Positions 14,311-57,935 of a stretch of 64,000 bases of DNA are shown one piece after another (position 1 is the first letter of the stretch; the number at the start of each line of letters is the position of its first letter). Below the pieces are notes generated by a model. It was not told the DNA's origin. It saw only the letters and a program-made list of their open reading frames with translations, and did no database searches. Source of the DNA: Takakia lepidozioides (Eukaryota; Plantae; Bryophyta); assembly GCA_030704615.1 (NCBI GenBank), contig CM060732.1, positions 27,590,001 through 27,654,000 of the forward strand. The letters run 5' to 3'. The position numbers were made by a program, and so were the translations under genes.

Positions 14311-14315
14311 GGGTC

Positions 14316-20174: not shown

Positions 20175-20175
20175 T

Positions 20176-20345
20176 TGTGTGGACTAGTGACTGCCATAGT
20201 GGGCAGCATAGTGACAGCCTAGTGTAGTTGTAGCCTAGTGGTTGGACTAGTGGTGGACTAGTGGTATACTAGTGTGTGGTGTGCACATGTGTTGTGTGGT
20301 TTTGGACAGCGATGTAGTTGTGTAGCGATATGTATGCGCACGACA
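20176..20345 (+). repeat. Extra terminal block A2 (5' half of LTR)
   Basis: Near-identical to 19668-19855; ends GCGCACGACA directly before the TSD. Confidence 0.9.
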
Positions 20346-20980: not shown

Positions 20981-21020
20981 AACTTAACTAACTAAGGAAC
21001 AAACTTTAGTCTCGCCAAAC

Positions 21021-21615
21021 TGTCAAGGACAAGAACATGACTGAACACAAACAAGAGATCAGACTAGAGGTACAAGACTAGACAAGAAGTCAAGGTCGAC
21101 GTGGCCGAATGCATGGTTGGTAAACATGAATCAAAATAATCTTTATAACAATGGACAAGAGTACAAGATACTGGAATTCGACTCGAATATTGGAATGCTG
21201 GAAACTGGACTGGGGTACCAGATACTGGAAACTGGACTTGAGTACAGGAAGCTGGACTGGAGTACTGGGACTGGGAACAAGAGTAGCTTAAACTTGTGTT
21301 GGCGAGACTGAAGAGTGTCCAGTCTCGCTTCCTATATATACTGGCTACTAAGAAACTTCCATAAGAAGCTCATATGGAGGTTTCTTGCTAGAGAAAATTC
21401 CAAGATTAAACAAAGGTTTCTTGATAGAGAAGTTTCCTCCAAAAGAAGCTTCCTCAACAGTTTCCCAAGTTAATCTTGATAATTTGGTAAACTCCCGGTA
21501 ATTTGATAAGTAATGGTAAATCATGGTAGATCATGGTAAATTATAGTAATTTCCGGTAACATGGTAACTTCTGGTATTTACTCCTGATAAGTTCCTCTGG
21601 GCTATGTCCGTGACA
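21021..21615 (-). mobile_element. 5' LTR of the host chromovirus-like element (3' LTR not seen)
   Basis: TGTCA...TGACA termini, TATA box near 21333-21340, gag immediately downstream in element sense. Confidence 0.75.
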
Positions 21616-22118
21616 GGCCATGCCAAGCTCGGAGCCCATTGGAGCTTGAAACTTGGCATGATGTTGCGTTGATTTGCTGTCAGCCAAGTCTGCCATCTTA
21701 AGGTTAATTTCTACTAACATGGTTTTGTCATTGATAAAATGACGACGCTGAGCCCAATTTTGATTAGCAGGGGGCAAGCCAAGGAGAAAATACCTTTTGA
21801 CCATGCGATCTCTTTCTGCCGGGTCAATGATGTTCTCAACTGCAGCAGACTTGATGTCCATGTAAAATTGCCACATGGATTCTTCAGGCTAGTAAGTCTT
21901 TGAAGAGAGCTTAGCAAAGCAGTCTAGAGGTCTTTCAGGAGGCTTGAACAATGTCTTAGCCTATTCTATAAGGATCACCCAATTGAAGCTAGGATCATCC
22001 ATGACTGCTGCATGCAGCAAGTCCCGAGCTGACCCCTTCATGCTCATCCTAAAGATGGTCATCTTGAAGTTCTTAGGCACTCCATTTACGCTAGCAATGA
22101 CTTCAAACATTTGAAGGT
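21616..22118 (-). pseudogene. Retrotransposon gag-like fragment
   Basis: FEVIASVNGVP..KMTIFRMSMKGSARD; KRYFLLGLPP. Confidence 0.5.
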
Positions 22119-25100
22119 ACACTACAACAGATTGCGGCTTTTATGACTCCCATGGCTGCGCAGTCATGACAGATTTGTGGCAGAAATGCCATTTGAAGTC
22201 GTAGATGGCTTTTGAAGTCATAACGCAGGTCCGGGGAAGGCGTATATGCGATTGCATGACTCCGGACTCTGCGCAACACATGTCAAACATGTTTGACCAC
22301 GAATATTGGCATGGCAGATATGACTACCAGTCACGGTCATACCTACACTGGAATGACGTGTACAAATTGCTAGACGGACATATGACTTTATGACTCTCAC
22401 TCTAATGCATTCTGCCAGATCATCACATGGATGAATCACTACATGACTGCACGTGTCGACACATGCTTTTCTGGTTATATATATAATATATCAATATTTA
22501 TATTTTGAAAAAATGTCGGAGACTCTAACCACTAGAATGAATTTTTTTTTTTTAAATCAAAGTGCAAAAGATTTGAAAAAAACAAATCGGCTGGAGGTGC
22601 ACAGTGTGTCGCCCCGGTGGTTCGGGGTTCAAACCCGCTGCCCTACCCCGTGTGTGGGATTGTTCATGACGATATGTTTGGGCGTTGATCGTCCTGTAGG
22701 TCTCATGGCCCAAATGAAAGGGGGTTAATTTTTCCCCCTCCTCAAGGGCATGAGGCTTCCTTTAAAAATTAAAAAAATTAAAAAATCAAAAAATTGCTTA
22801 TAGGGTTTGCAAGAAGGTTAAAAAACTTAAAAAGTTGCCCATCACGGTAGTCGTGAATCGAATTAGAGTGAGCGGGAGGGAGGGAGATAGAGAGAGAGGG
22901 CTGGGACTTAGAGCGAGCGGGAGGGAAGGCAAACATGTATGGGAGGCCGCAGTTGGAGCAACCTTTGCATCTGAAGCAAGCAACCCTAGAAACGCTAGGG
23001 TATGTGTGCGAGGAGGTTTTGGCTGGGAGCTCGTCGTTCTTGGGAGAGTCAGCTTGGCTTAGCTAGGCCATGTTTCAATCTCTACCCGCTCAGTTGCACC
23101 GTGGTGGTTCTCACAAACCAATCCGACATTACCTGACTACAGAAACAAGTAGCACACTGAAGAGGTCCTCTTGGGTTCATGGTCAGTCAAATCCTCCATG
23201 GGTCATGACACAAGGTCGAGGACAATGTGGTGAGGGCAACCTTCTTCTTCGACCTATTTCAGCCTATTTTTCCCTCTCATCAGACTCGGCCCTTCATTTG
23301 CAGCACGGAGTAGAGTTGGCATGAGATTTTTAAAGATCCTTCACGATGGTGCGACAACCGCAATGGCAAGGTGTGGCTTTTCCTTAATGTACGATGTAAA
23401 GAAGTTTGTCCATCCTGCAAATGTGGGCTGTTGGCTCCTGTTAGTACCATGATTTGGTATTCTTCCTGATGTTTCAAGGTTCTTGGGAGAGTCAGCTTGG
23501 TCTTAGCAGACCGTGTTTCAATCTCTGCCTGCTCATCTACACCGTGCTGGTTCTCATAGACCAATCCGACATTACCTGACTACAAGACACAAGCAGCACA
23601 CACAAGAGGTCCTTTTGGGTTGATGGTCGGTCAAATCCTCTATGGGCTCTTCTTCAACCTATTTCAGCCTGTTTTGCCCTCTCATCAGACTCGGCCTTGA
23701 GATGCATATTGAATTATGTAAGTTAGCTCGTTGCTCATTGATAAGTAGGGTTGGGGGTGTTTGCTGGAATGATTGTTGTATGCATGATTTTGTGCAGAGG
23801 CATAGATAGCTGAAGGAGCAGGGATAGAGTGTGGAAGAGGGCCAGATTTCAAGCTCCAGATTATCTATGATTCCCCGTGGAAGGATAGATACAAGAAACC
23901 TGCATGGGTAGATGGTCAATTGGAAGCTGCAGCAGCAGCGGCACAATTGATAAAATCAAGCACTACTAATGAAGGCACCTTCTGAAACACATTTCACCCT
24001 ATTTTCCCCTCTTATCAGAATCGGCCCTAAATTTTCATGTTCAATTCTGCAAGTTAGCTGGTTGAGTGAATCTAGTTGGAGTGACTTTGACATGATACTG
24101 CCAATGTGACAAGAGTATGCATTGAACCCATTGGTAGCGGGATATTGGGATATCTCTTGGCCATGTGCCATCGTCAAAGCTGAAATTGTACTAGTTGTCA
24201 TTCTGACCACTGCCCTAGTGGACATATATGCCAAATGTGGGTGCAGCAAGCCTGATGCAAAGGGAGAGTTCGACAACATGGCTAAATGAGATGTGGTGTT
24301 ATGGACTGCCATGATTGTAAGGTGTGTGTAGCATAGGTGTGGGAGTAAGGCTTTGGAAACCTAAGAACAAATGATGTAGGAAAGGATGAAGCCAAACCAG
24401 GTCATGTTCATTTGTGTTTGTTAATATGCATATGCGAGCCTAGCAGCCCTGGGAAGGGGCCAAGAGGTTCATGGTGACATCATCAAAGCTGGAATTGTAC
24501 CTGATGTCATTCTGAACATTCCCCTGGTGTACATGTATGTCAAATGCGAGCCTGGTAGCCCTGGAAAGGACGCAAAGGTCCATTATCAAATCTGGAATTG
24601 TACCACTAGATGTCACTCTAAAGACTGCCTTGGTGGATATGTATGTCAAATGCATGTCTGGCAGCCCTGAAAAAGGGTACAGAGGTCCACGGTGATATTG
24701 TCAAAGTTGGTATTGTATCTGATGTGATTCTGAACGTTGTCATAGTGGACATGTATGCCAAGGTTGCAGGGTGCAACTACAAGGATACATGGCTGTTTTG
24801 ATAATATGGTTGAATGAGATGTGGTACCAGCCTAGCCCATAATTGCACTTAACTAGAGTAGGCAATGAGTGAAGACGGGGTTTGTGATGACATCGTCCAA
24901 GCTGGAATTAAACAAATGTTGTTCTGAACTATGCCCTTGTGGACTTGTATGCCAAATTGGGGTGCATGGAGGATGATGATTCTAGGATATGCACAACAGC
25001 GGCGTGGGATGGAGGCCCTTTGGAGAGGTCTATGAGCAAGTGGTGTGGGAAGGGATACTGCAGCGCAACCACATTGGTACATTTGCAACATGTGTGCAAG

Positions 25101-25504
25101 CCTGGCAGCCGTGCAAAATAGCAAAGAGGTTCGTGGTAACATCGTCCAAGCTAGAATTGTACTAGATGTTGATCTGAACTTTGACATGATGCCAATGTGA
25201 CAACAGGAAAGTATCCAGAAACAGGTCACAGAGACGAGGAGAAGTTGTGAAATGGTGGGACAACCGAGGGAAAAAGGTTAATGCCTGTTAGATTATAGAG
25301 GGCAGACGCAATTCAGCATAGGAACTAGTGTGATAAGCTGAGTTGGGTGTTTCCTAGAACAAATCTAGGTTGTCATTATCAGCTGCAAGGCAAGGAAGTA
25401 TGCATGATTTGTGCACAAGCAGTGATAGTTGAAAGAGCAGGGATAGAGTATGGGTCCAGATTCATCCAAGAGGGCCAGATTTCAAGCACATGATTACCGA
25501 TGAT
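22119..25504 (+). repeat. Left arm of a large inverted duplication
   Basis: Colinear reverse complement of 60223-63843; paired ORFs such as 23956-24312(-)/61404-61760(+) and 24440-24655(-)/61061-61276(+). Confidence 0.9.
24160..25150 (+). pseudogene. Degenerate PLS-PPR fragments
   Basis: GTGGACATATATGCCAAATGTGG and GCTGGAATTGTACCTGATGTCATTCTGAAC match PPR repeat units, with stops and frameshifts. Confidence 0.8.
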
Positions 25505-25590
25505 GGGGGCTGCTATTTCATGAGCCATGAGCCATGAGCGGCATGAGCCATGAGCAGAGTCGTAAGTGTGGAAAAAAACATGAGCAGCAC
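25505..25590 (+). repeat. Left terminal inverted repeat with CATGAGC iterations
   Basis: GGGGGCTGCTATTTCATGAGCCATGAGCCATGAGCGGCATG; interrupts the PPR-derived flank abruptly. Confidence 0.75.
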
Positions 25591-25967
25591 TATTTTCCGG
25601 AAATGAGTGTCCGCGGGAATAGGGTTTAGGGTGCCACGGTCATAGGGGGAGAAGGACCTCCCGATGAAGGAGGTTCGGCAATGTTATTTAGAATTATATA
25701 TTGAAAGGCAATGTTTCGCGAATGGTAGGGTGGTACTGCTCTGTACAATGGGGGCCCATTTCAGCCTACCAGCCATTTGCAAAATTCACCCACACTCCCA
25801 ATCCCAAACGAAATGAGCAATGACGCATTCTCGGAACGATGGACACAGAATAGAATAAAAAGAGGGCACAATGAGGTTTTTATTGATCCACATGAATTGC
25901 ATTTGAAGCACGTCTACTGTGCTGATTGTGCCATCAAATCTTGAGCCCTGTGCCTACTGAATACAAG

Positions 25968-26531
25968 TCACGTTGTCAATGGGACTTTGACTGCTCTCAG
26001 AACTAGCTCATGAGTCATGGGGCTCCTCCATGTAAAGTCGATTGCAGCCGTTGTACCGCCCCTAGTGATGTTCACCACAATGTCCTGCCCTTCAATCATA
26101 CCACCATCGAATATGGAAATCTTCACGTTTTCGTCGTCCACACCAATGCGAATGTCCCCATACAATGGAGAAGAGGAGCGCACTCCTCGAGGAGAATAGG
26201 TCTCTCCGATGGAGTCCACCCACGTCCAGTGGCAGCAGTTCCACCGCAACAGCATAGCAGTGCGCCTTCTTCTGCATAGGTGACCGTCGTAGCTGGGAAA
26301 ATCGGAATCGAGGATGCGCAGGAGCCACGGACTCCTCAGACCAAGATCGTCACCCCGCTCGAAGGCGTAGTGGCCTACGATATACTCAAAAGCCACCAAT
26401 GTTTCCACAATCGAACCAGTATCTTCTGTGTAATCTGTGTACCAGATAACAATGTCTCCCGATGTGGCCGAATACATTGCATAATCGATGCCTCCAAAGG
26501 GGCAGTCGTCCCGGTTCCGGAAGCACGGCAT
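25968..26531 (-). CDS. Unknown ~190-aa protein, RWNCCxWT family, copy 1
   Basis: Open frame; aligns over its length with 27082-27651 from MPC onward (GDIVIW, AFEY, WLLRILD, RWNCCHWT, YGDIR, DGG.I.G.DIVV). Confidence 0.7.
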   Translation of the reverse strand: MPCFRNRDDCPFGGIDYAMYSATSGDIVIWYTDYTEDTGSIVETLVAFEYIVGHYAFERGDDLGLRSPWLLRILDSDFPSYDGHLCRRRRTAMLLRWNCCHWTWVDSIGETYSPRGVRSSSPLYGDIRIGVDDENVKISIFDGGMIEGQDIVVNITRGGTTAAIDFTWRSPMTHELVLRAVKVPLTT

Positions 26532-27081
26532 CCTTGCAAAGGAGGACCTGAGGACGACTTGGATGCCGATGACCTTGCGGACAGCTACGAAGCCCTTAGA
26601 TTTTGGAAATGATACGAAGCGGAAGAGCAGTCCGGCCTCCAATAATGGAGCATCTGGGTCACACGTACCCACCGACGGAGGTGGAACGTGTTCATCACGA
26701 CAGCGGTGGATGAAGCCATACATCTTTCTCATCAACAAGTTATAGTTTGAGATCTGCCACCGAAGTCCATCCCCCCGGATGGAAATTCGGCGCCGCATTT
26801 ACATCGAAGAGGGGATGGACTTCGTCGTGTCCAGTGGCTATCGGCCCACCTGGCAGTGACTGCCCATAGTTTGCATGGCAGGGTAGGAAACAGAAACGGC
26901 TACATTCATGCAGCAGCCAATCTTCATCGGTCCAGGATCCTGTAGGGGGGAAATTTAAATGTGCCCTGGAGTGTTTGTGAGGAATTGCAGCGTTAGCTTG
27001 AACTTTTTCCAGCCACCGCGCTGCTCCTCCTCCATCCGGGAGCTGCTGTCATTGAGCGTACTCCGCTACTCTTTTTCAAGG

Positions 27082-27651
27082 ATGCCGTGCCGCCGAAATC
27101 CAGCCGACTGCCCTTATCATGGCCACGATTATGCTATGTTCAAACCAGAATCAGGAGACATCATTGTCTGGCTCTCTGTTTTCACAGACGCTGCTGGAAT
27201 CAAGCAAGAGTCTTTGCGCGCAATGGAGTATCTGGAGGGCTATTACCGCTTTGAGCGAGGTGAGGGCGAGGGTCAATGCGGTCCGTGGGTCCTGAAAATT
27301 GTTGACCTCGATATACCAAGGATGCCGGACAGATCACGCACGGCCTCGCTTTGGCGCTGGAACTGCTGCCAGTGGACCAGGGAGGACGGCACCGGGGAAA
27401 ACTATATACGTGCAGATCACTCCGCTCTTCCAGTGTATGGAGACATTCGGCTGCGTTGCGAAGACGAATCGCACGGGCACATGAGGCCCACAGTGACCTT
27501 GTCAATGTATGATGGTGGTATCATTGATGGACATGACATTGTCGTCGGCTCCAGTAAGGGCAGCAGAACGACCGAATTGCAGTTTACCTCGAGGTGCCGC
27601 AGCAGTGATGAGCTTGTTTTGAGGGGTATCGAAGTTCCGTCGACTTGGTGA
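27082..27651 (+). CDS. Unknown ~190-aa protein, RWNCCxWT family, copy 2
   Basis: MPCRRN..., GDIIVW, AMEY, WVLKIVD, RWNCCQWT, YGDIR, DGGIIDGHDIVV, ELVLR; head-to-head with copy 1. Confidence 0.7.
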   Translation: MPCRRNPADCPYHGHDYAMFKPESGDIIVWLSVFTDAAGIKQESLRAMEYLEGYYRFERGEGEGQCGPWVLKIVDLDIPRMPDRSRTASLWRWNCCQWTREDGTGENYIRADHSALPVYGDIRLRCEDESHGHMRPTVTLSMYDGGIIDGHDIVVGSSKGSRTTELQFTSRCRSSDELVLRGIEVPSTW

Positions 27652-27904
27652 AGCCCATGTAGAAGGAGGAAGGGCTTAGTTTTGTCTGCAGTTGGTAAAT
27701 GTGAGACATCGTGTCCGATCAATAAACCCATCGTACCTCACTTCTGTATGATTGTGTTTCATTCTGTTGAATAACTGTCGGAATTGGCCCACTGTTTACA
27801 ATTTGATGTCTCATTTCTACAATGTTTCTGTCCGGATGAATATAGCAGAGTAACCGTTATGTGAGTCATGTGTCAAGAATATACCAGAGTAACACCATGT
27901 CGGC

Positions 27905-28590
27905 ATTGAAATGCGGCGCCGCATTTCCATGTCGGGATTGAAATGCGGTGCCGCATTTCCATGTCCGACAAGAAAATGCGGTGCATCATTTCCGTCCAGG
28001 TACACGAAATACCAACACGGGTCTATAAATGATCAAAAACGAGGTTGGCATTGCAAATGCGGCGACGCATTTCCAGCTTGGCAATGGAAACTTCTTTTTG
28101 GACAAGGGAATGCGGTGCCGCATTTCCGTACAACACTTCGAAAAGTGTGACATTTCCGACCAGCGCGATGGAATGCGTTACCGCATTTCCGAGAGAGGGT
28201 CTGCAAATGGACAAATTGCGATGTCCATTCTGGAAATGCGGCGCCGCATTTCCATGTCCATCAGCGACTTTTTTTTACAATGGAATGCGGTGCCAATTTT
28301 TTGCTGATGGGCCTGCAGTTCGAACAACGACCATCCCCAATACTGAAATGCGGCACCGCATTTTCAATCCCGCCATCTCGACCTCCTTGTTCGACCTCCT
28401 TGTTCGACCTCTGTAAGCGTGGTGGCATCCATGCGATGAGCGGGAGAGGCCAAAACTGGCGTGTGGACAAAGGAAATTTTGGAAATGCGGCACCGCATTT
28501 CCAATTCAGATTACTTTTTACTATGCCAACATTGAAATGGAAAATTTAGTCCCTCCCCTGTTTTGGAAATGCGGTGCCCCATTTCTGATT
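27905..28590. repeat. Array of ~11 palindromes AAATGCGGCGCCGCATTT
   Basis: Copies near 27909, 27941, 27973, 28055, 28109, 28171, 28234, 28283, 28346, 28483, 28567; outliers near 26783 and 29891. Confidence 0.9.
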
Positions 28591-28722
28591 TTGGGAGCGT
28601 CGTGGTTTGGGCGATTGTGTGGCTGGAATGCACACTGGAGAGGGGTCACGAATGTCGGGCAGAATTTCCTTTATATACTCTGGAAGAGAATTTACATTTA
28701 CAGAGACTTCATTAAAATTCTA

Positions 28723-30552
28723 TTAATCTTGAAAATCATCCGAATCCTCATCCTGTTCTAGACTGTCCTGCTCATCCTCCACCCCCTCAGTGCCTCTCTC
28801 ATCTCCAGCGGACTGCTCGTTGGCCAGGCTTTCGAAAATCCCATCTTCCCCTTGCGGAACTGTCCATCTCACCTCCGTTGGGTCGTCTTCCTCCCTGTCT
28901 GCGTCGCTCTCATCCGCTGAATCACATATGTACTTTCGTACCCGTCTACCTGTCTGAGCTGCTGCCAACTCTTTCCTTATCCTTCTGTCCTCCCTAGCCC
29001 TCTCCAAAATCTGCTCTACTTTACTGGGATTCTCACTTCTTCTAATCACTGTATTTGCGAGTTTAGCTGCATAACTAGGAAGGGAGTAGTCCCTCACCGG
29101 GCTCGTCATGAATCGGCCCTCGCAAAGAACGGGACATTCTTCCTGGCAGGAAGTGTAGGCCCTACATGTTTCGACCCGGACCCTGCAATCCTGCACATGA
29201 CAATCATCAACGAGACTAATGAGAACCACAGTCGGGAAATTCGTTTGACATAAATGACCCAGAAGGCTTTGCAAACTTACAATGTTTGCACTCACTCGTA
29301 TTCCGGGTTCTCCTCCGCATCAATGTCCACTGTGTCTTCCTCGGACTCCGACGAATCCGAGGAGACTTCCGCTCTGTCGGGAGCCTTCACATTCCGTTGC
29401 AGCCCCTCCAGATGGGATCCCCACACGGATGAATCCTCCTCGTAGGCAAAGAGGTGCCGGTCGGAAAACCGCCCAGCCCACATTGAGGCACCTGTTACAA
29501 TGCCATCCACACATTACCACATGGCGCTTCAGATGTTGCGAACTACATCCTAACGAGAATTTGCAGAACAGCATAGATCAAGATTCTGCATACCTGTCCC
29601 ACAGATGAGGTCGAGCACTGTGCCCTCCACGTCTGTGCATGTCTCCATAATTGTCTGAATGAAGGCAGGGCTCCGAGTCCGTGAGTACCGCAGGGGTTCC
29701 GTTGAAGTGAGGCTATGAGGGAGAAGTTCCTTGGGAACGTTGTTGAACAGAACGTCGTAATCGAGTGGGTCGCAGTTCGGGTCAACCTTTCCTCCCTCCT
29801 TCCGGAAAGCAAAGGTGGAGTTCTCCTTCACAAAGCAGTATGCATCGAACTGCTTCGTCTGCATACACAGGGGGAAAACGATTAGAAACCGAATGCGGCA
29901 CCGCATTTGAAAACACCCAAGCAAATGAATGGACGAGTGCCAGTGTCGTAATCACCTTCTTCCCTTCCGACCGAAGGCCCAGTGTGTTGATGCACGTCCA
30001 CTTCTTTTTCAGAATCGGGACGGCGCTCTTGCGGGTCCACTTCGCAATTCCTGTCTGAGTGTTTTTTCCTCTGCTCGCCAGGACAACCACACAGCCTCTG
30101 TCGTCCAACACCATGCGGGCAAGCCCGAATCCTTTCTTCCAAAAGTCCTCCGAGTACCTGTTCCAAGATGGCAAAGCTTGCAGTCCTTCCACAGGCTCTC
30201 CGTCCGGAATATCCAAGATGATCATATCGCAAGACCACTCGGTGGCATTTCCGCCCCTCCTACAATCCTTGTCTGCACACACCCTCTCAAAGAACGAGAC
30301 CATATTCTGAAATCCTGGGGTGTCGGAAGGCTCTTCGGCAGTCGCCTTCTTCAGTGCTCTGCCCTTCAGACCCTCCATGGTCTTCAGGTATGCCAACTTG
30401 GCTGCCCGTCCATCCAAAGCCGCCAAGAAACTCTCATTTACACACTGGACTACAGTTTCGGGAGCCACTTTCGGCCTCTTCATTTCCACCGGCTCGAAAG
30501 GGTGCCCCCCTGGGGGGTTGAAGAGTGCCTTCTTTGCCGAGCCAGTTCTCGT
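28723..30552 (-). CDS. Spliced beta-class N4C/N6A DNA methyltransferase-like gene, copy 1 (5' end lost in gap)
   Basis: Exons >30552-29956 (CDMIILDIPDG..LDDRGCVVV), 29858-29594 (RSPAFIQTIMETCTDVEGTVLDLICGTG), 29491-~29298 (ASMWAGRFSDRHLFAYEED), acidic last exon to 28723; GT-AG introns. Confidence 0.7.
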
Positions 30553-31052
30553 NNNNNNNNNNNNNNNNNNNNNNNNNNNNNNNNNNNNNNNNNNNNNNNN
30601 NNNNNNNNNNNNNNNNNNNNNNNNNNNNNNNNNNNNNNNNNNNNNNNNNNNNNNNNNNNNNNNNNNNNNNNNNNNNNNNNNNNNNNNNNNNNNNNNNNNN
30701 NNNNNNNNNNNNNNNNNNNNNNNNNNNNNNNNNNNNNNNNNNNNNNNNNNNNNNNNNNNNNNNNNNNNNNNNNNNNNNNNNNNNNNNNNNNNNNNNNNNN
30801 NNNNNNNNNNNNNNNNNNNNNNNNNNNNNNNNNNNNNNNNNNNNNNNNNNNNNNNNNNNNNNNNNNNNNNNNNNNNNNNNNNNNNNNNNNNNNNNNNNNN
30901 NNNNNNNNNNNNNNNNNNNNNNNNNNNNNNNNNNNNNNNNNNNNNNNNNNNNNNNNNNNNNNNNNNNNNNNNNNNNNNNNNNNNNNNNNNNNNNNNNNNN
31001 NNNNNNNNNNNNNNNNNNNNNNNNNNNNNNNNNNNNNNNNNNNNNNNNNNNN
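30553..31052. other. Assembly gap (500 N)
   Basis: Run of N. Confidence 1.
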
Positions 31053-31199
31053 CAACGGGCTTGCACCGTTCTCGGGGTCACTACTCCCCTTATATATACT
31101 TCTGTAGCTGTCCGCGGGGGTTTCACAACCAGCCATGCCATTTTATGGCGAACCACCACGAAAACCCTCGACTCCCTGTGATGAGTCGCGGTGAGTCTT

Positions 31200-31961
31200 G
31201 CAATATTTGAACTCAGATCATCCACTTGAGTCTGCAGGCCTTCCACATCCTCTTGTAGCTCCGCTATCCTACTATAGACATTGTCCATAGTAGTTGTGGC
31301 AATGTTCTGCACCTGCAATCTGAGCTCATTCATCTCGCCCTGGGTGAGCTTCCTTGGTGCTTTGCCTTCTACTGGCCCTTGTGCTAACCAGACCTGCATA
31401 AGGTGGTTATCCACCAAGTCCTGTGTGGCACCCCTGAGAGTCTGCTCCTCCTTGAGTCTATACACATTTAACTGCTGCTGTAAAGCCTCCATGCGCTTCG
31501 CATGAGGTTCAACTAGGCCCGCATAGGCAGCAGCCAGATTATTGGCTTCCTCCCAGCCTTGTTCTTGAATGAGGCTTAGTTCATGCAAGCTGTAGAATTA
31601 TACAGTAGGATAGAATAAAGACACCATGGCATAGGCATGATACATGATTAATCTTAATCCGATACTGAATCAATACGAACATACTGTGTAGAGAGACACG
31701 AGAGAAGCTGTGGAATGAATGCATGATTAACTGGAACTTAGTAGATACTGAAGCAATCTGATGCTTCAGTATACACGGTAAGGTAAATTGATAACATGAA
31801 GGCAGGAAGGAATACAAATAGGAAGCACAACCATGATTCACTAGCTGCAGGTCATGACTGATTGTTCTGAGCGGGCTGAGTGCTTAGAGATATCCAACTC
31901 TTCTATCTTGGAGTTTCCACCTCGGATAGCGAAGGGATGGGTGAGTAAAAGCTGCTCGACA
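31200..31961. mobile_element. Rearranged fragments of the second Gypsy family (extra-ORF piece on minus, LTR 3' part on plus)
   Basis: PRKLTQGEMNELRLQVQN matches 52496-53608; LTR end GGGTGAGTAAAAGCTGCTCGACA at 31961. Confidence 0.8.
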
Positions 31962-33290
31962 GGAGATTAAGACTGTCAATGAGGGATGGCTGACGATGAT
32001 GGAGAGTCGGAAGAAATGATACACTGGGGTGCCTTCGCCTACTTGGGATAACATGATCTATTTCCTTAATCTGTTGGGAATTTAACTTTCTTTCCTTTGC
32101 ATTTGTAAGTGACATTGGCAGTATTGATCTTTGTTTCTTTGCAAACATTCTTCTCTTCGTTCTCAAATTGAACATGTCTGTCGCAGGTGAGCACTGGTCC
32201 CTCCTTCGTGTGCGGTGTGCAGAAAACGTTTGCTGCTGACATGGTCATTCTTGACATCCCGGACGGCCAGGCTGTGCCAGAAGTTCTTTTGAAGGGAAAG
32301 ATGCCAAGCTAGAACAAATTCGATGACAACTACTGGAGTTGGGTATTCGGGTTCTGCAATTATTTCCTTTCTAATGCAGAGACACTTCTGATCTTTCAGT
32401 CATGTGATAACGATAGTCGTCGGGCATTGGCATCATACCTGAAGTCCTCTGGGTTTGAAGTTCTGCGCACGTGGAATTGTGTGAACATCCTCTACCTTGT
32501 GAAATGGGGTTGTCCTGGTCAGCTGGTATGACGCCTCTCTCTTGGATGTGCTTTATTGCTGCGTTTCAATGTTTTTTGCAGTGTAACTCTAGAAGAATCT
32601 GTGATGATCGGCACCGATCATCACAAATATGTGATTGATCAGTTTGTTGCATGTCTATGTTTTGAAGTGCCAATCTACAAATTCCACTAATGGTTGTGTT
32701 TTGCACCCTAACCTTTAGTCTTTCGCAGACGAAGATGTTCGAGGCGATCTGCCTGCGAAGGATTCGCACCTCAAAGACACCATCCTCCATCCGCAGCTTC
32801 GAGATTTCTGACAAGGGGTGTTTCATCAATCCCCCGCATGAGCCGCATGTCGATGACATTTTGTACAACTTCATGTAGCCCAGTCAGACTCTCAAAAGAC
32901 CAGATGGCACTCCCTGGAGAGGTGCAAAGGAGAAAACCCCCGCGTTCATGCAGACACTGCTGGAGTCATGCAGATACTGCACGGATGGTCGACCTCTCAG
33001 TATCCACAGGTTTGTTTTCTCCATTCAGATTTGGTTTTCTTTCACCAGTTTCATCTTCATTAATGCCCCCCTCCAAGCTGTTCATGTCATCCTATCTGTT
33101 GCAGGAGCAACTTACCATGCGTGCAAGGCAGGCGGAAGAGCCATTTTTGGCATGGAGGGTGACTCTGACCTATACAAGACTGTGCTCCTCCCCCTTTTGT
33201 CTGGCTCTACATCAGGCACACAAATCGAAACGATTCAATTCCAAAATGATGAGGATCCCGAGGATAAGCAGGTCCACAACGACTTTTCAT
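31962..33290 (+). pseudogene. N4C/N6A methyltransferase-like gene, copy 2 (stops, frameshift)
   Basis: ADMVILDIPDG..PS*NKF (32187-32525); TKMFEA..DDILYNF..KEKTP..MVDLSVSTG (32729-33009); ATYHACKAGGRAIFGMEGD (33105-33290); same intron positions as copy 1. Confidence 0.7.
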
Positions 33291-34269
33291 GTGAGTAAGT
33301 CTGTCATGGATTTGTCATTCCACTTTGGGTGCCCTGTTCAATCGCATACATCAAATTTGCAGTAATAACATTTTTTTTGCTGTGACTTGAAGGAAAGGCA
33401 GCGATGGATCTTCAGGAGACACCCCCATTTGTGGCGAGACTATTTTCGACAGCCCCCTTTCCACTTTTGTGCTTCCTGTGTATGCCGAAGTAATGGCACT
33501 TCAAATGGCCGAGGCTCTCTCCCCTGACTTTTTATTGCCCGACCGCAGGTGTAGCCATCGTAGATCCGGAGTTCTTAAATTCTTGGACTTGGATGCAGAG
33601 GACGCGGGGATACATTGTACTGACTCTGAGTCAGACTGAACTATGCATTTTTAATGTTCTATTCTCATCCTCTTCGGAAAAGATTGAATCCCCTACTCTA
33701 TTGCAGATGTTCCGACAGAAAAAAAAAAAAAAAAATGGAACAAAGAATCCACTTAGAAGGAAATGGCAATTTTCATAAATCCATCCCACAAACACCACAC
33801 ACTCATGTCATATCCATTGTTCATATACATTGTGCATTCATCTATTGTGTATGAATGCATCCTCCATTCATGAATGTTTTCCATTATTCAACATCCATTG
33901 TACATTCATCAATTATACATTCTTCCATTGTACTCTCATCCATCCCTCTTTCATCCATCTACTTGCATTGTTAGCACTCATCCATCTATTATTCATCCAC
34001 TCTACATTCATCTATCCTGCATTCATCTGTTGCTTTCATGTGGGAATGACCACATCCTTTTATTATGTTGTCCAATTTGTTTCCGCGATTAAGGGTGCTC
34101 TTCCGCGGAAATACACTCCGCTTCTTCCTTGGCGTGCGGTGACGCGGCATTTAAGCGCGATGACGTGGAGTGAGATTGGTAATGTGGCGTGGGTGCAAGG
34201 TGACATGGCGTGAGTGCAGCTGCGCTCACGCGACCACGCTCACGCCGAGGCATCCTTGGACCTACAACT

Positions 34270-35655
34270 AGTGTATCATGGGGGTGCTTCCTATTTGTAT
34301 TCCTTCTTGCATTCATGTTAGCAAGTTACCTCACTGTGTATGTTTAAGTATCAGATTGCTTCTGCAATCTACAATATTCCATCTACTTAACCATTCATTC
34401 CACAGCTTCACTCTGGTCTCTCTACACAGTGTGAGTATGAAATCTGTATCAGATTAATATCTATCAAGTATCAGGCTGAAGCCATGGTGTCTCTAATCTG
34501 CTCTACAGTGCATCTCTACAACTTCCATGAATCAAACATCATCTCGTCGTATGTGTAATCTCCATCCCTGTGCTCCAAGATCGTGCTCTCCGCTTGATCT
34601 TCTCCCGTGATGTCCAAGACGTGATGCAAGAAGTGACCCCCTCCATGTCGCTACTCTGCCTATTCTTCATGCAAGCTGTTCTAACCGCCTAACTAATTAA
34701 TTGTCATCCAAAACAGAACACACGATCCCTCCGCAGATGTCGTTCCCGCACTGTCGTTCCCTGCCAATGATATCCGTTCTATGTGAATGCTGTGACGGGC
34801 TGTGCTAAGCTGTGTCAGGCTGTGACTGTGCTGAGCTGTGACTAGCTGTGTCGGGCTGTGATAGATTGTGATAGGCTTGAGGCCTTGTTAATCACAGAAA
34901 GCTCATTCTCTCGTACTATGATTGTTTGCTGCAATTCAAATATGTACTTGTCCTTCTGGGCATCGACCTGATGATACTGTTGAAATGTATCCTCATTGCG
35001 ACAGATAATAGCCTTTATGTCAGCAATGAGTTTCCCCTGCTTCATTGACTCATTCTCTGCCATTAAACATCCATCAGCTTGGTTCTTAATTTCTAGTGCA
35101 GTCAGCTCCAGATTAGTCGTTAGTGTGACATACTATATGTCGCGGCCCTTTGCCTTGAGGGCAGGGGGTCGGGACACATGAGGGGCTGCCCCTGTGGTGG
35201 GGGCAGCGGCAGCAATAGGTATGGGGGGCTGAAGCACCCTTGAGTGCCCAAGGCACTCAAGGAGGCGGAGGCGCTCACTAGGTGGAGCCCCGCACACCGG
35301 GTTGCGGTGGGGGTGGCTCCACAAGGGGTGGTGGTAGCTTAGCGGGACTTAGTGGGGGTGGCATAGGACTCACCATGGGGGCGGAGACCTCGTGGTGGGA
35401 GTCGTGGGGAGTCTTGGGACTCATCACGGTCCATAGGGGCCATGGTGAGTACAAGAGAGTTTTTGTTCCTGAGGAGCAGCTGATGGCTACTTATTTACAT
35501 GCCAAGACTCTAATTTTTCAGTCTTCTTTGCAGGGGGTGCAGGAGATGCCAGTGGTAGAAGGGCCAGTGGTACCAATACCACAGCAGGTGCCTGTGCAGG
35601 TAGCTGACCCTATTGCTACTACAGCCAAACCACAGCCAGAAGTATGGGGGGATGT
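34270..35655. mobile_element. Nested LTR and ORF fragments of the second Gypsy family
   Basis: LTR-like 34270-34870 (minus), ORF pieces 34880-35120 (minus) and 35450-35655 (plus, RVFVPEEQLMATYL). Confidence 0.7.
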
Positions 35656-38600
35656 TGTCGAACGGCTTTTACTCACCCATCCCTTCGCTATCCGAGGTGG
35701 AAACCCCAAGATAGAAGAGTTGGATATCTCTAAGCACTCAACCCGCTCAGTACAATCAGTCATGACCTGCAGCTAGTGAATCATGGTTGTGCTTCCCATT
35801 TGTATTCCTTCTTGTCCTCATGTTATCAATTTACCTTATCTGATACTGAAGCATCAGATTGCTTCAGTATCTTCTTAATTCCAATTAATCATGCATTCAT
35901 TTCACAGCTTCACTCATGTCTCTCTACACAGTGTGCTTGTATCGAATAAGTATCAGATTACGATTTATCAGGTACTAGGCCAATGTCAAAGTGACTCTAA
36001 TCCGCCCTACAGTATCACTACAGCTCTGCATGAAATAAACCTACATCAAGTCATCATCTCCTCTTCTGTGTAATCATCATCCCTGAGCACCAAGATCGTG
36101 CCCTCCGTCTGACCTTCTCCCCTGATGTATAAGAAGTGATCCAAGAAGTGATCCCCCAGAAGTCCCCGCTCTTCGCTTTATCTACCTACAAGCTGTTCTA
36201 ACCGCCTTGCTAACTAACCGTCACCCCTGAAGTAACATATTCCCTCTGCAGATGTTGTTCCCACACAGTAGTTCCATGTCCATGTTAACCGTTCCCCCTG
36301 TACTGTGACAACTGTGCAAAACTGCGTTGGGCTGTGTGAAGCTGTGACGGGCAGTGACTGGCTGTGATTGGCTATGACGGACTGTGACGGAATGTGACAA
36401 CTGTGACGGGCTGTGATGGCTATGCCGGGTTGTGACTGGCTGTGTCGGCTGTGTCGGGCTGTGTAAAGTTGTGGCGGGTTGTGTCAGCTGTGTCTGGCTG
36501 TGACGGGCTGTGTCAGGCTGTGTAACCCTCCCCTAAAGTCCGCTGCTGTCACCCCTAAGGCTCCTGTTGGTCTCAGTCTATGTAAAAAATAAGGGTACCC
36601 CACAGAACCTGTAAAAGCGTTAAAGTCCCAAGCAGCCCTCTAACATTTACCCCTCCCCCTCTCAAAAAACCGTGTCCTCACGGTTTACTGTTTAGGATTA
36701 GCAAACCTTTGTGATCGAACACCCTTCTGACGGTGAGAGTCTTGTGAAGGACTCCGTGTGCAAGCCCGAGTCTTGTCACTGGTTGACGGAGATGATTGAG
36801 CACTACCCGGAAATGTCTGACCTTCCTTTGGTTGATATCGAGGTAATCTCTTAGGCATATGAGACCCTCGTCGTTTCTTCTCTGCCATCTGAATTGCATA
36901 GTCCTCTGCCATGTCAAAAGAGTGCGCTGAAGAAACAGTAGTATCAGAATCCTCGTCACCCCTCAGGTGTTTTAACGGTCGAACTCTAACTGGAATCCTC
37001 TGGGGCATATAATGTGGTCCCACCATGTCTGGAAGTTTAAACTGTACAACTTGCTGTAAGCGCTTAATGGCAAAATTGGTGAACACTCTGAACTCCTTGT
37101 CCGTAAAGGTGAGTGGTGTGCCAATGACTTGGGAACAGTGCAAGTATATCCATGCCTCATGTCCCTTAAAGAAAATATCATCAGGGCCGAATTTCTGTGT
37201 TGTCAAATTGTTCCAGGCCGAATGAAACCATGAATGAAGTTGGGAATCCTTTTGCATCATAACTTTTGCTTCATATAGGTACATAGGAGATGGCACTGAA
37301 GGTAAGACCCAATGATCCCCACTGGAATAACTCAGAAATCGTGATTGCATCTTCTGCTGCTCAATGAGATAACGTGCCAGAAAACAAGCAGCATAGTATA
37401 ATCCATAACCCATGACAATACTTGCTACCTCCTTGGTCTTGGTATAAATGTACCCATGTACAACTTGGAAGGCAATTAATTCCTTCAACATGGTACTTGC
37501 TTCATACCATTAGCTCGCAAAGTGATGATCCTCAATGGGTCGATTGTTCGGAAGAACCTTAGTCCTAGTTGCCACTGGCAGCCAAATGCGCATGATCTGG
37601 TAATAATGTGCCAACGACTGCGGAGGACTAAATTCCTTCCAAGCCAAATCCAACACAATGGGAATTTGGTTGAAGGGCATAATCATAGCCCGACTGTACT
37701 CTCGTAGCAGGAGTCTTAGGTGGGTTAAAAGCAGCATCCCCCCATACCTCAGGCTGTGGTGTGGCTGTAGTAACAACAGGGTCCGCTACCTGCACAGTCA
37801 CTTGTTGTGGTATTGGTAGGACTGGCCCTTCTACCACTGGCATCTCCTGCACCCCTTGCGAAGAAGACTGAAAAATGAGAGTTTTGGCCTGTAAATAAGT
37901 AGCCATCAGCTGCTCCTCAGGTACAAAGACTCTCTTATCAATATTGGAAGTCAGGTCATCCACCTGAGTCTGCAGGCCTTCTACATCCTCTTGTAGCTCC
38001 GCTATCCTACTATAGACATTATCTATAGTAGTTGTGGCAATGTTCTGCACCTGCAGTCTGAGCTCATTCATCTCGCCCTGGGTGAGCTTCCGTGGTGCTT
38101 TGCCTTCCACTGGCCCTTGTGCTAACTAGACCTGCATAAGGTGGTTATCCACCAAGTTATGTGTGGCACCCCTGAGAGTCTGCTCCTCTGTGAGCCTGTA
38201 CACATTTATCTACTGCTGTAAAGCCTCCATGCGCTTTGCATGAGATTCAACCAAACTTGCATAGGCAGCAGCCAGATTATTGGCTTCCTTCCAAGCCTTG
38301 TTAGCCACAGAGAGTTCATTTCTATTTACCATGACCGTTTGCTGCAATTCCAGGATGTACCTCTCTTGGTCAGCTTCAACCTGTCTGTATTGCTTGAAAG
38401 TATTCTCATTACGACAGATTGTATTCTTCATATCAACAATGAGTTTCGTCTGCTCGACATTCTCTGCTTCTGCCGTCATACACCTCTCCCCTTGTCTGTT
38501 AACTTCTAATGCAGTTTGCTCAGAGTAGTTGTGAGTGTAGCACATTGATGGTCATCCTCTCATGTACTGCCTGCAACTTTGTATGTAGTGCATTCACTTC

Positions 38601-40482
38601 TTGCATCTTGCCCTCATGCTTCACCTGCATTTGGTATAACTGTTGTTTATGTGCTTCGTGCAACTAGTCCTGCGCGAGACCTGCTTCAATCAAATGTTCC
38701 TTGGCCAACTGCAAAACAGCTTTTGTATCCTCTAACTCTTGCTGTAACTTGAGATTGATCTCCTCATCGACCTTGTTTGCACACTCAGTGGCAAAGTCAA
38801 GCCTCAAACTCCTACTGAGTTCTCCTCAAAGCTGCCAATTGGGTAGATAGAACATGGGATTTCACATAAGTGCCCAACAAATTAAGTGTCTGCTTATGGG
38901 AACTCATAAGCATGGCCTGCTGAGGGTTATCATGGGAGCTTGCTGCTGGTTCTCCCCTGATCCTCAATAGTGTGATGCCTCACAAACCATTCAAAGCCAT
39001 TGCTTTCCCCAGTTTTCTTCCTGAACCACCCTATCCGCCACAGATGCTTGCAGTTTAGTTCTTGATCTTCTACCCCTGATACCTCCGTCACAGGTGTGGG
39101 TATTACATGCACAGCAGGGTTTCCCCTAGACAACCGCTGCTTGCACACCTCTGGAATCACTGTTTCCCTTACCAAGCCAGAATTTCATAGAGAAGGCCCT
39201 TCTCAATTTCGGCCACGGCCTGCTCTGTTGTAGTGGGAATGTCCAACTTTCTCCTTCCAGAGCAATTGGGGGTGATGCCACAGCACATACTAACTGTGGA
39301 AACCTCTAAAACAACAGAGTCAATTGGTTGTGGTGGCTTGTGGTATCGAAGTGACTTCCTCTTCCCTCTCTGAAGGCCCTGCTTCCAATAATAGCAGCTC
39401 TCTGTGCTGCTGTGCCCCACTGGCACAGAGCTTGGGAACATTATCGTGCGGTTTCCGTGAAGCCAGTGGATCCGCCACTACAGTCAGTCCCCGCCTCTGT
39501 CTCTTAGACTGGTGTTGCGATTGCCAGTCACCCTCACTGTGTGTGAAGGCTTGCTCTCATAATTGCAGTGGTTTCTGCCTCAAACACTCCCATTCTCCTT
39601 ATGCTCCCGAGTATCAAGTATGCAAGAATCAAGAATTATTTGGCCATGACTGGACCGGACACAATGATCGGAGGAGACTTAGCAGCAGTGCCCTGTAACC
39701 TCTTCATTTGTCCACCAATCGTTGTACATTAACTCCGCCCAAGCACATTTTCTCTCCCCTCAAAGCTTTCAGGATCTCTCGTGAATGACCTGCTCAAATA
39801 CTGTTGGTTCTATTTCGTGGCAAACAGAACATTCAAGATTTGGCCAACTTCCCCTAAGCCCTGGGTATCTCGGCTTTGGTACAAGCAAAACCTTGAGTTT
39901 TAAAGAAACTCCCTTCTTGGAACAAATTCCCTATCTGCAATCTTGCCCTGTGCTCATCCACATCCACATGTCCTGATGGCAAATCAAACAACTGCTGCAG
40001 GTACTGGGGAGTAATTTCTATATCTACTACCCTCACCTGAGTGACTCCTGTCCAAGGCTCAAAGTTCTGAAGAAATTGTATCATGAACTGCCGATGATGC
40101 AAGGACCAGTCCTTGCGTAGCAATCCCTCCACTCACAGCTCCTTCAGTAGCTGCACCGCTTGTGGTGTAGCAATCGTTTGCTTCTGTAAGATTGTGGTGT
40201 TCTTCACCCTGATATCCTCCATTCCTCTCACTTCTTCATTCTAGACAAACAGAAAGGTTTTGTGGCAACAATGAAGAAGAAACGTCTGCAGGGCACAAAG
40301 CATAAAAGTATGGTTGGCACAGAATGAAATGGGTAAGTGCTTGTAAGCCTGTGGGCTTGCAAGTATCGATTTAGAGAAAAGGTACTCTCCGTTCGTTCAT
40401 CCTTGTGCGAGTGTGTAGTCTGTTATTTCCGCCATAGCTTCAAAGCTATAGCTTTGATTGTCTCTCCCGTCGAGACGCCCGT
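35656..40482 (-). mobile_element. 5'-truncated copy of the second Gypsy family (extra 3' ORFs, PPT, 3' LTR 35656-36645)
   Basis: Homologous to 50240-55049; PPT complement CCCCTCCCCCTC near 36650; LTR TGTTAGAGG...TTCGACA. Confidence 0.85.
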
Positions 40483-41870
40483 GAAGACCTCTCAAATTGC
40501 TGGGTCATGTTCGACCACATCCGGCGAATTACCAACCACGATTGGGTGACAAATGGGGGCACATGTATACGACCCACATTGCAGAAAGTTGATGACCATT
40601 GCTATCTGCGAAATGAAAGGAGAAGACAAAGATTCGGAGTTAAGTTTGAATATGTGGCGTGGAATTAATGAGCACATGGCGAGAGCGAAGTTGCCCCCCC
40701 CGATATTTTAGGGGGCTTCATGGCTGACAATGCCCAGGCAAACTGGCTGCAGTTGGCGAGGGTATATGGGGACGACCCAAAGGACTCCAATAGAAGGTTA
40801 AAGAGAGATTGTGCGGGTTCCACTTCATGCAGAGTTTGATGCAAAACACGAAAAGGTTCGTGGCGTCACGCCACCGGCAGGATCATATCAGTATGTGCCT
40901 TGCGTGGAAAAATGTGAATTCCATCGACGAGGCGGAGACCGAGTTTGCAACCATACGCGCCTGGTGGGTCTTCTTCAAGGGCAGTGGATGTGAAAGATCA
41001 GCAGAACTGCAAACGTGGCTTGCATGGTGGCACTATAGATTCCGCCAGTTTGGAGAATACATGAGACAGGTAAACATTTCTGTACTTGACAATTGTTCTG
41101 TTTTGTGCTTGGACATTCTCCACAAATGAGTCGACCATTTTTAATTTCCTTCAACACGACATGAGCTTGGAGGGTGACACGGATATGCCGATGACGAACA
41201 TGGCCGAATCGGTGCCCTCTTCGGCGTGCTCCTCTGCGAGCACATCTCGTTGACATGTTGACAGCAACAACAGAAGATATTGTGAGGGCCATCATGCAAC
41301 AATCTCGTTACTACCAGTTTCTGGGAGGAAAGCAATGGGGTATCGGACCAGACAGGCAGGAGGTGCTGATGAGGCGGCGCATCGTTCGACCCGATCCCAA
41401 AAAATGGACTGCTGCATTGCTTGAAACAATAAGGTCAACGCCGTTACACAGTCGGGGGAACTGCCTGGAGGGCGATGTCCGCAGCCGGCCGGTTGAAGAG
41501 AAGAATTGAGGACATGCCCAGAAGGCGACGGGGATTCATGGAGATCAGATATGAACATCCGCACTCAACCCTCGGGGACGCAACGATGTTGCGTCCCACG
41601 CCTACTCCCAGCAGGACTCGTTACCCCCTCTACTGCCAGCATCCATGGAATCGCTGCAAGACTCGGGACACCATGCCGATGATGAGCATGTTTGCTCCTA
41701 TTTTCGTTACCATACAGCATTTCCAATCGTGGAGCAAGATGTGTCGGGCTCCCTCGCAGGGGAGAATTGCACGGACCCGTCCGACATTTCGTTGCAAATG
41801 TTGTGCTGTTCGTTGTCGACACCACCAGAGATGCAATGGGATGAATTCGGAGGAGCCGCAGGGCGGTGTG
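40483..41870 (+). pseudogene. Mutator-like (MULE) DDE transposase, core region
   Basis: NCWVMFDH..WVTMGAHVYDP..TIAICEM..ED, FMADNAQANW, CGFHFMQS (CxxH), WLAWWHYR; frameshifts. Confidence 0.7.
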
Positions 41871-56391: not shown

Positions 56392-56961
56392 TTACTCTAG
56401 CATGCAAGACCTATGGTCCCCTTGCCCAAGAAGAAGGAACTCGAACTGGCCTCTCAAGGACCTCCTGAGTGACCGGGTGCGATATTTGAACAAAATGTCA
56501 GCGGTTTCTGTCGCTCGGTTGAAACTAACGAGGATGTCGTGTTTATCGATAGCGCCCCCTTGGTAGAAGGACATTTGCACAGTGGGCCCTGTGTTCCCCT
56601 CCTCCTCATCCTCATAACTGGAGAGAATGTCCCCACTTTCCGAGCCAATCCGTCCACGCGTGAAGTTTTCACCTATGCACTCATCATACGTCCACTCGCA
56701 ACAATTCCAGCGATACAGCAACGCTGTGCGTGATCTGTTCGGCTCCCACTCAAGCGGAAAGTCCAGATCCATGATGCGTAGAAACTACCTGCTCCCCAAC
56801 CGGGGTCTAGGAGAATCGTGCAATCCTAGAAGAAACTCCATTGCTCTCAGCTGGACAAGACGAGGATCGTCCCTGTAAACATCTAGGAAGACAATGATGT
56901 CGTCTACTTTCGGGACAATGACTCCCGTCTGGCGTCGATAGATGTGATTCAGGCACGACAT
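56392..56961 (-). pseudogene. RWNCCxWT family, copy 3 (one premature stop)
   Basis: MSC.., DDIIVF, AMEF, *FLRIMDLD (TAG where paralogues have W), RTALLYRWNCCEWT, GGAIDKHDILV. Confidence 0.7.
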
Positions 56962-57189: not shown

Positions 57190-57670
57190 TGCTCTCCGGA
57201 GCCCAATTTCGGCGCCGTTATTGGATGGACTGCGGAAGCTTCAGCCGAGAATTTTGTTTCCAGAGCCCAATTTTGGCGCCGTTATTGGTTGCATTGCCCA
57301 GCCTTCAGCCGGGTATTTGGTTTCCGGACCTCTATTTCGGCGCCGTTCGGCTGCACTCCGGTGGCTTCAGCCGAGTATTTGGTTTCTGGGGCCAATTTTG
57401 GCGCCGTTATTGGCTACACTCCAGAGGCTTCAGCCGGGTATTTGGTTGGCGGAGCCCAATTTCGGCACCGTTATTGGCTTCACTCCCGAGCCTTCAGCCG
57501 GCTATTTCTTTTCCTGTGCCCAATTACGGCGCCGTTATACCCAACCTTCCTGCACTTCTGCAACTGTACTATCCACGGTTATAGGTCACCATTGCGTTTT
57601 CGGAGTCTGCAAACCCGGATCCTAATTCCGCTTGCGTCTCTGCCTCTGGGATAATTTCGGTGCCGTTATT
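57190..57670. repeat. ~63-bp subterminal tandem repeat with CCAATTTCGGCGCCGTTATTGG core
   Basis: Cores near 57203, 57266, 57330, 57392, 57455, 57518, 57652. Confidence 0.85.
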
Positions 57671-57869: not shown

Positions 57870-57935
57870 ACTTTGCGGCTCATGGGTGAGCCATGCCCGC
57901 TCATGAGCTCATGAGCTCATGGAATAGCAACCCCC
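57870..57935 (-). repeat. Right terminal inverted repeat
   Basis: Reverse complement reads GGGGGTTGCTATTCCATGAGCTCATGAGCTCATGAGCGGGCATG. Confidence 0.75.

Follow-up and report, generated by a model that had tools for sequence, protein, structure and literature searches.

The nearest described systems are giant Plavaka, Mutator and Zisupton elements of red algae, in which a PF01555-SET gene and a ParB-like gene adjoin inverted-repeat arrays proposed as sites; PAG2 and PAG3 are Plavaka accessory genes that also occur on the Mutator and Zisupton elements (10.1101/2025.02.11.637652). In the literature that we examined, transposon-borne PF01555 genes come from red algae only, and the characterised eukaryotic writers of N4-methylcytosine (4mC) with the same beta-class fold number two: the Marchantia enzyme MpDN4MT1, whose catalytic motif IV reads TSPPY, and the bdelloid rotifer enzyme N4CMT, which has SPPY (10.1101/2021.02.12.428880, PMC8885841). 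Here we analyse a stretch of 64,000 nucleotides of the moss Takakia lepidozioides (GenBank assembly GCA_030704615.1, contig CM060732.1, positions 27,590,001 to 27,654,000; hereafter the window), which holds two related sequences of this kind. Copy A is an intron-containing gene in a high-copy element with terminal repeats, and copy B is a dead paralogue. We consider it very probable that copy A is a transposon accessory gene with the beta-class amino-methyltransferase fold.

Three further systems bear on this locus. The N6A-methyltransferase domains of DIRS1 retrotransposons were judged inactive from substitutions of catalytic residues (PMC4738411). In plants, the DNA transposons VANDAL and Spm encode the accessory proteins VANC and TnpA, each of which acts on its own element (10.64898/2026.08.24.746577), and fungal Starships carry DUF3723 genes as auxiliary genes (PMC13486527). 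No description of a land-plant counterpart of the Takakia family was found in the literature, most subscription papers and Repbase lying outside the coverage of the search; the family seems not to have been described from land plants, and its conceptual precedent lies in red algae.

Gene structure of copies A and B

Copy A lies on the minus strand and copy B on the plus strand, on either side of an assembly gap. Because the 5′ end of copy A runs into this gap, the adjacency of the two copies is not established. Their features are as follows.

30552 to 28723, minus strand: copy A gene, 5′ part in the assembly gap, stop at 28723
29956..30552, minus strand: copy A exon 1, still open where the gap begins; linker, motif IV DIPD at 30213-30202, conserved PxWN and Gly
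29955-29859, minus strand: copy A intron 1, 97 nt, GT-AG, phase 0
29594..29858, minus strand: copy A exon 2; pre-motif-I segment and motif I (VLDLICGT)
29593-29492, minus strand: copy A intron 2, 102 nt, phase 1, containing in-frame stops
29296..29491, minus strand: copy A exon 3; remainder of motif I, acidic motif-II strand
29295-29191, minus strand: copy A intron 3, 105 nt, phase 2
28723..29190, minus strand: copy A exon 4; acidic tail, probably disordered, up to the stop
30553-31052, no strand: assembly gap of 500 N, covering the 5′ part of copy A and the remainder of its element
31963..33640, plus strand: copy B, pseudogene paralogue; 5′ end cut by a repeat resembling a long terminal repeat (LTR), DIPD at 32253-32264
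~31963-32072, 32187/32223-32525, 32729-33009, 33105-33294 and probable last ~33550-33640, plus strand: copy B exons
32526-32728, 33010-33104, donor at 33295, and an additional upstream intron from 32073, plus strand: copy B introns

Three observations support splicing in this family. In a contig of run X14, whose RNA label is a guess, a B-like paralogue is joined exactly at 32525/32729, which corresponds to 29956/29858 in copy A; many relatives diverge into unrelated sequence at the site of intron 1, where the relative P0019 has an in-frame insert; and annotated proteins of the fern Adiantum have no insert at the position of intron 2. A second X14 contig joins 32072 to 32222, and another, spanning 32769-33222, retains intron 2. 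Contigs of run X8 (its RNA label likewise a guess) contain no splice joint. An earlier reading of these letters made without database searches (the sequence-only reading) had predicted the copy A junctions; the first is matched by its equivalent in the B-like contig, while copy A's own junctions were seen in no contig of the runs compared. Exon 4 of copy A lacks one base near 29112 that is present in contigs of X3, X7, X6 and some of X1; the frame of the family consensus therefore stays open up to the stop. At the other end, a contig of run X3 extends ~500 letters beyond 30552, and the 30 letters of it that were compared leave the frame open.

The same reading had described two intron-bearing paralogues with shared GT-AG sites. 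Both were located with the motifs it quoted, and the introns of copy B sit at positions and phases homologous to those of copy A, apart from the extra upstream one. In copy A, splicing leads into a beta-class methylase-like domain; that copy B is a pseudogene had gone unmentioned. Copy B has in-frame stops at 32310-32312 and 32876-32878, and its motif I is reached only through a frameshift near 32975. Exon pairs of the two copies align with scores of 131, 85 and 42, compared with 45, 59 and 38 as the best of 200 shuffles, and 65 of 211 aligned residues are identical; by these alignments, copies A and B are homologous beyond chance. The possibility that they form the arms of one long inverted repeat was ruled out, as their exons are just 55-66% alike and their ages differ.

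Nucleotide identity between the copies at codon positions 1, 2 and 3 is 0.44, 0.57 and 0.34 (211 codons), a pattern that fits purifying selection and suggests that the protein has been under constraint. Among exonic variants of copy A, 10 of 20 are silent (counted among 40 of 652 and 40 of 276 contig rows); under neutrality, a silent share of about one quarter is expected.

The element carrying copy A

The left part of the element, between its terminus and copy A, contains the following features.

25505..25570, plus strand: left terminus of the copy A element; G-rich terminal repeat with short CATGAGC repeats, within a decayed PPR-gene copy
25968..26798, minus strand: open reading frame ORF-X1, intronless, 276 aa, 44% identical to ORF-X2
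26959..27651, plus strand: ORF-X2, 230 aa, intronless paralogue of ORF-X1
27895..28600, no strand: array of 16-bp palindromes with core AATGCGGCRCCGCATT, 10 copies; candidate binding sites

At 25505 the sequence switches from the decayed PPR copy, and similarity to an uninterrupted paralogue at 60223 ends. A contig of run X3 begins exactly at this position, the flank differs in a contig of X7, and contigs of X6 run on beyond 25504 into different sequence. As many as 37,219 contigs of run X1 fall on 5.75 kb, and the summed X1 depth, which is not a copy number, is 8,000-25,000 within 25568-30552 compared with 411-555 at 24800-25183. Consensus contigs of 25505-30552 that are near-identical (99% alike) assemble in two very small runs. 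The segment 25505-30552 is a repeat in high copy that has a sharp terminus and is flanked by varying sequence. In X3 and X7, loose ends at 25505-25549 reveal a sister family whose terminus starts with GAG instead of GGG and which has the next motif and the CATGAGC repeats in common with it. The PPR region itself consists of decayed, nearly identical inverted copies at 22119-25504 and 60223-63843, related to an intact PPR gene of the PLS-E-DYW editing-factor type at 2098-5655.

Two further 16-bp palindromes lie outside the array, at 26784 and, within intron 1 of copy A, at 29892, giving 12 matches where 0.04 are expected by chance. An X8 contig that is 99% like exon 2 diverges exactly at the intronic copy (29892-29907), for which an autoregulatory site or a recombination point are both possible. 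ORF-X1 has no match in Pfam, NCBIfam or the PDB, and its PHROG matches are at chance level; ORF-X2 is absent from some copies of the element, as seen from a joint of 26974 to 27733 in X1 and X3 contigs. ORF-X1, ORF-X2 and a third member described below form the ORF-X family; these paralogues lack introns, are 44-46% identical and lie near both transposon ends, and they represent a second, uncharacterised accessory gene.

Relatives of copy A

A phmmer search with exon 1 of copy A, a DIPD protein, against 1.84 billion representatives gave 18 matches, 17 of them genuine relatives; P0007 was discarded as a low-complexity match. Apart from one "hypothetical protein", the named cluster members of the 17 relatives are Adiantum proteins, and further family searches returned 4 and 10 proteins, every one from Adiantum. 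The fern relatives are multicopy, and exon 2 of copy A is 39% identical to P0019. Decayed copies that have intron 1 in the corresponding position occur at five metagenome loci (L001-L005) in AT-rich DNA (34-36% GC). The idea of an old, intronised, transposon-borne family, already raised by the sequence-only reading, agrees with these multicopy relatives and with the high-copy element around copy A.

Other searches were negative. The window protein found zero loci among metagenome contigs and P0006 zero among viral contigs; when longer proteins were searched by words of exon 1, none of 1459 candidates was retained; neither exon 2 nor two family profiles found a methylase among PDB sequences; and a Pfam scan of the separate exons of copy A gave nothing relevant. 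PHROGs and NCBIfam produced only weak motif-I matches on the relatives (best E 7.5e-4). Pfam misses this land-plant family, which is represented by near-identical copies in the present genome and is multicopy in ferns.

Full-length Adiantum relatives are ~850-1000 aa long and have, ahead of the methylase domain, an N-terminal region with a GNHR-type motif that we take to be ParB-like. The nearest neighbour of this region in the ESM Atlas is DUF3723 (0.92, a language-model similarity), and no SET or oxygenase domain was found in the relatives scanned. An unrooted tree of 25 rows, in which the phage branch measures ~5 changes per column, left the DIPD and DIPE rows unresolved and is compatible with a single loss of the motif IV aromatic discussed below.

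Predicted fold and the DIPD motif

The AlphaFold2 model of the complete fern homologue P0026 has domain blocks mostly at pLDDT 60-95. Its best structural matches are MboIIA (Z 16.9, root-mean-square deviation 3.1 over 191 residues), BceJIV (Z 16.4), CcrM (15.3), PvuII (13.6) and N4CMT (13.4); the top 20 rows are exclusively beta-class and MT-A70 amino-methyltransferases, the best other row having Z 7.5. Ten beta-class structures match at Z 13-17, with 9-18% identity in the closest rows. Foldseek agrees, both in the PDB (E 2.5e-9) and in the viral library. In copy A itself, motif IV precedes motif I, as in beta-class amino-methyltransferases, and the closest ESM Atlas neighbours of exon 1 are PF01555 clusters (0.92). 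Because copy A is homologous to P0026 and this homologue is modelled with that fold, the family is predicted to have the beta-class DNA amino-methyltransferase fold. The layout proposed from the letters of the two copies is supported by P0026 and the motif order of copy A; of the fold checks suggested with it, Foldseek succeeded for the homologue, while for PF01555 none of the separate exons matched and P0019 reached E 0.062, under the cut-off.

In the conserved mechanism, the target base is stacked by the aromatic residue of [DNSH]PP[YFW] (PMC4738411, section 7). In the form [DNSH]-x-P-[YFW], this aromatic is absent from both window copies, which read DIPD, and from 14 of the 17 representatives. 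In this fourth position, T occurs six times, D and F three times each, S and E twice each, and N once, whereas Asp1 is kept in 17/17 and Pro3 in 16/17. Aromatic-bearing relatives are P0011, P0014, P0018, P0038 and P0042, the last being a member of a DLPF cluster and itself carrying DLPY.

These counts bear on the proposal that a conserved change to Asp signals altered chemistry. Even in a search seeded with DIPD, only 3 of 17 representatives have Asp, with T, S, E, N or F elsewhere, and the argument from conservation in both copies is weak because one copy is a pseudogene. A conserved new catalytic Asp was rejected; the replacements being varied, small and polar, the position looks relaxed. 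A non-catalytic, DNA-binding role, the other suggestion made at the time, stays plausible given the lost aromatic, although not on the strength of the Asp. The supposed likeness to eukaryotic 4mC writers also failed, as those enzymes have SPPY or TSPPY, Asp comes first in all representatives here, and the phage neighbour with DIPY is annotated for adenine. Asp in the first position points to an N6A ancestry instead of one of the Marchantia or rotifer 4mC type.

This phage methylase, a clear beta-class protein annotated as adenine-specific, had the best E-value among the rows displayed when phage proteins were searched with P0029 (E 0.06, in itself not significant). It has DIPY followed by Trp, and a similarly non-canonical motif I. 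D-I-P would therefore be a native prokaryotic variant, and the lost aromatic the sole departure from it. Aligned to the phage enzyme, copy A keeps the motif-I Asp, two Gly of that motif and the motif-II Glu; with Asp1 and Pro3 also kept, binding of S-adenosylmethionine (SAM) is likely. Canonical base methylation by the DIPD members, on the other hand, is probably lost. P0038, from Adiantum nelumboides, keeps DLPF, has a motif-II strand without the acidic residue and an altered GNHR motif, so that aromatic-bearing members are not automatically active.

The sister end and the transposase remnant

Further right, the window contains a second terminus and remnants of a transposase.

57870..57935, minus strand: sister terminal repeat, inverted relative to the 25505 terminus
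57205..57670, no strand: second near-palindrome array, a variant of the left array, 6 matches compared with 0.00 expected
56395..56949, minus strand: ORF-X3, a broken third ORF-X member, 46% identical to ORF-X2 (E 1e-29)
40482..41870, plus strand: decayed DDE transposase remnant, frameshifted, resuming at 55050 beyond an LTR retrotransposon

A 21-letter terminus pattern was built from the two ends 25505 and 57935 themselves. They share ~60 nt with short tandem repeats, are inverted and both abut AT. Copy B is oriented toward the 57935 end as copy A is toward the 25505 end. The host sequence left of 25505 is not resumed in the flank of 57935, and this mismatch makes two related insertions of different age, joined across the gap, the simplest reading. 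A single 32-kb insertion from 25505 to 57935 was disfavoured for the same reason, the gap lying between its ends. We infer the link of copy B to the transposase through nested LTR fragments. The transposase remnant contains MADNA, CGFH and TNMAES, which we take to be Mutator-like motifs; Pfam did not confirm this. Mutator-like elements (MULEs) usually have long terminal inverted repeats and make target duplications of 8-10 bp; paired flanks are not present here. CxxH is common to MULEs and hAT, and MULE families with short terminal inverted repeats exist (PMC5225508). Searches for the transposase fragments and ORF-X in the metagenome loci L001-L005 gave no match.

Retrotransposons account for other parts of the window. 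One LTR family is nested at 31053-31961, 34259-40482 and 41871-55049, interrupting copy B and the transposase; the copy at 41871-55049 is cleanly inserted, with a 5-bp target duplication. A separate Ty3/gypsy-type retrotransposon at 12215-18700 (plus strand) carries, between protease and reverse transcriptase, a C5 cytosine methyltransferase domain in the open reading frame 14274-16208 (PF00145, E 2.2e-12, PCQ and ENV motifs intact). Retrotransposons with such a domain have been described in the alga Klebsormidium (PMC5890265); the present one resides in a land plant.

A proposed pseudo-methylase accessory protein and its alternatives

The model that we favour, to which we give an even chance as a whole, is that copy A encodes a SAM-binding, non-methylating pseudo-methylase that recognises its own element. 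The protein would descend from a prokaryotic or viral N6A methylase of the D(I/L)PY type and would have, in the part lost to the gap, a ParB/DUF3723-like N-terminal region as in the fern relatives, which may bind the 16-bp palindromes. The methylase fold could serve as a dimerisation and DNA-binding or SAM-sensing module without base methylation, beta-class proteins being known to act as dimers with divided labour (PMC10406627). In the manner of VANC and TnpA, the accessory protein would protect or activate cognate copies and keep the element expressed or mobile.

Several observations weigh against this model or parts of it. None of the nine transposase fragments matches any transposase family in Pfam, and the transposase is tied to copy A solely through shared termini, ORF-X and palindromes, the latter of which could equally be sites for the transposase or ORF-X. 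The step in X1 depth at 25505 is not clean, because another repeat raises depth at 25184-25567. The folded homologue P0026 is just 24% identical to the window protein over the aligned part. Pfam found neither ParB nor DUF3723 in the relatives scanned, the model of the fern N-terminal region is unusable (pLDDT 35), and the searches yielded no DIPD-subgroup member of full length, so that a ParB-like region is assumed for this subgroup. Finally, the retained Asp1 and Pro3, residues that hydrogen-bond to the target amine, could mean residual catalysis.

The main rival is an active, transposon-encoded amino-methyltransferase with a remodelled site, more probably making N6-methyladenine (6mA) than 4mC and marking the element, perhaps at the palindromes, against silencing, with some fern DLPY/DLPF members as its conventional form. 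The retained Asp1, Pro3, downstream Trp, motif I and motif II, together with the aromatic-bearing relatives, speak for activity, and red-algal PAG2 has been proposed to methylate adenine (10.1101/2025.02.11.637652). We nevertheless find it doubtful for the window protein: the stacking aromatic is part of a conserved mechanism and has been replaced by several unrelated small residues, the Trp adjoins Tyr in the phage enzyme too and hence is no new compensating residue, and the HPTQKP segment, conserved in prokaryotic enzymes, is altered as well. A broader and somewhat more speculative proposal, rather unlikely in our view, is that transposons of seed-free land plants carry a ParB-guided amino-methylase system, in which DLPY/DLPF and possibly DIPD members write or read 6mA/4mC at palindromes as a private anti-silencing mark.

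The same fold and SAM site might also act on something other than DNA, be it a protein (transposase or histone) or RNA, or the protein might be an inactive partner like METTL14. Such partners are known in the permuted group (PMC4738411), the division of labour in beta-class dimers cited above would allow for one, and the SAM pocket is kept. Nothing indicates a specific substrate, though, and an aromatic-bearing paralogue is found neither within the window nor among proteins assigned to Takakia lepidozioides, both local copies being DIPD; we regard this as unlikely.

Decay is the theme of another reading, in which a host gene fragment was captured in the manner of Pack-MULEs and is passive cargo. 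Copy B and all five metagenome loci are broken, and introns are retained, as in capture at the DNA level. The A-family consensus nevertheless keeps an open frame with the codon-position pattern given above, and the relatives are multicopy in ferns with no single-copy host parent among the matches, which makes this improbable. Lastly, a 4mC writer of the host, akin to DN4MT1 of Marchantia or N4CMT of rotifers, would share the fold class, N4CMT being among the structural matches of P0026, but a Ser-first motif occurs in 0/17 representatives and the gene lies in a high-copy repeat, so that we give this origin hardly any credence.

Comparison with known systems

The family spans intact (DLPY/F) and aromatic-less motifs, and so offers a testable case of transposons reusing DNA-modifying enzymes against host silencing, for which the protein, a candidate 16-bp site and natural active-site variants are all at hand. 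Signals of 6mA or 4mC in fern or bryophyte genomes may stem from transposons. Were the ParB-guided system real, land plants would have their first transposon-encoded amino-methyl writer, together with a natural series from active enzyme to pseudo-enzyme.

Among mobile-element systems, Starship DUF3723 is, by language-model similarity, the nearest named family to the fern N-terminal region and is likewise borne by mobile elements, although Starships are fungal tyrosine-recombinase elements. VANC and TnpA provide a functional model by analogy; the accessible text reports no methylase fold for them. The DIRS1 domain belongs to a different, unpermuted group derived from PCIF1 and is part of a retrotransposon polyprotein.

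With the beta-class N6A/N4C methyltransferases of prokaryotes and phages (M.MboIIA, CcrM, M.RsrI, M.BceJIV, M.PvuII; mtase_2 of phage phiNP), the family shares the permuted fold and motif order, and it differs from them in its introns, the lost aromatic and the eukaryotic transposon context. Like MpDN4MT1a/b and bdelloid N4CMT, it represents a beta-class fold of prokaryotic origin in a eukaryote, and N4CMT has also gained introns; those enzymes differ in their intact (T)SPPY, proven 4mC activity and status as low-copy host genes. The closest parallel is PAG2/PAG3, also DNA-transposon accessory genes with PF01555-type and ParB-like domains, beside inverted repeats in tandem arrays. In red algae, a methylase-SET gene and a ParB-like-2OG (2-oxoglutarate) oxygenase gene are separate, whereas the fern relatives fuse the ParB-like and methylase parts; compared by description, the land-plant domain further differs from PAG2 in its host, in having mostly lost the aromatic and in being too diverged for a PF01555 score.

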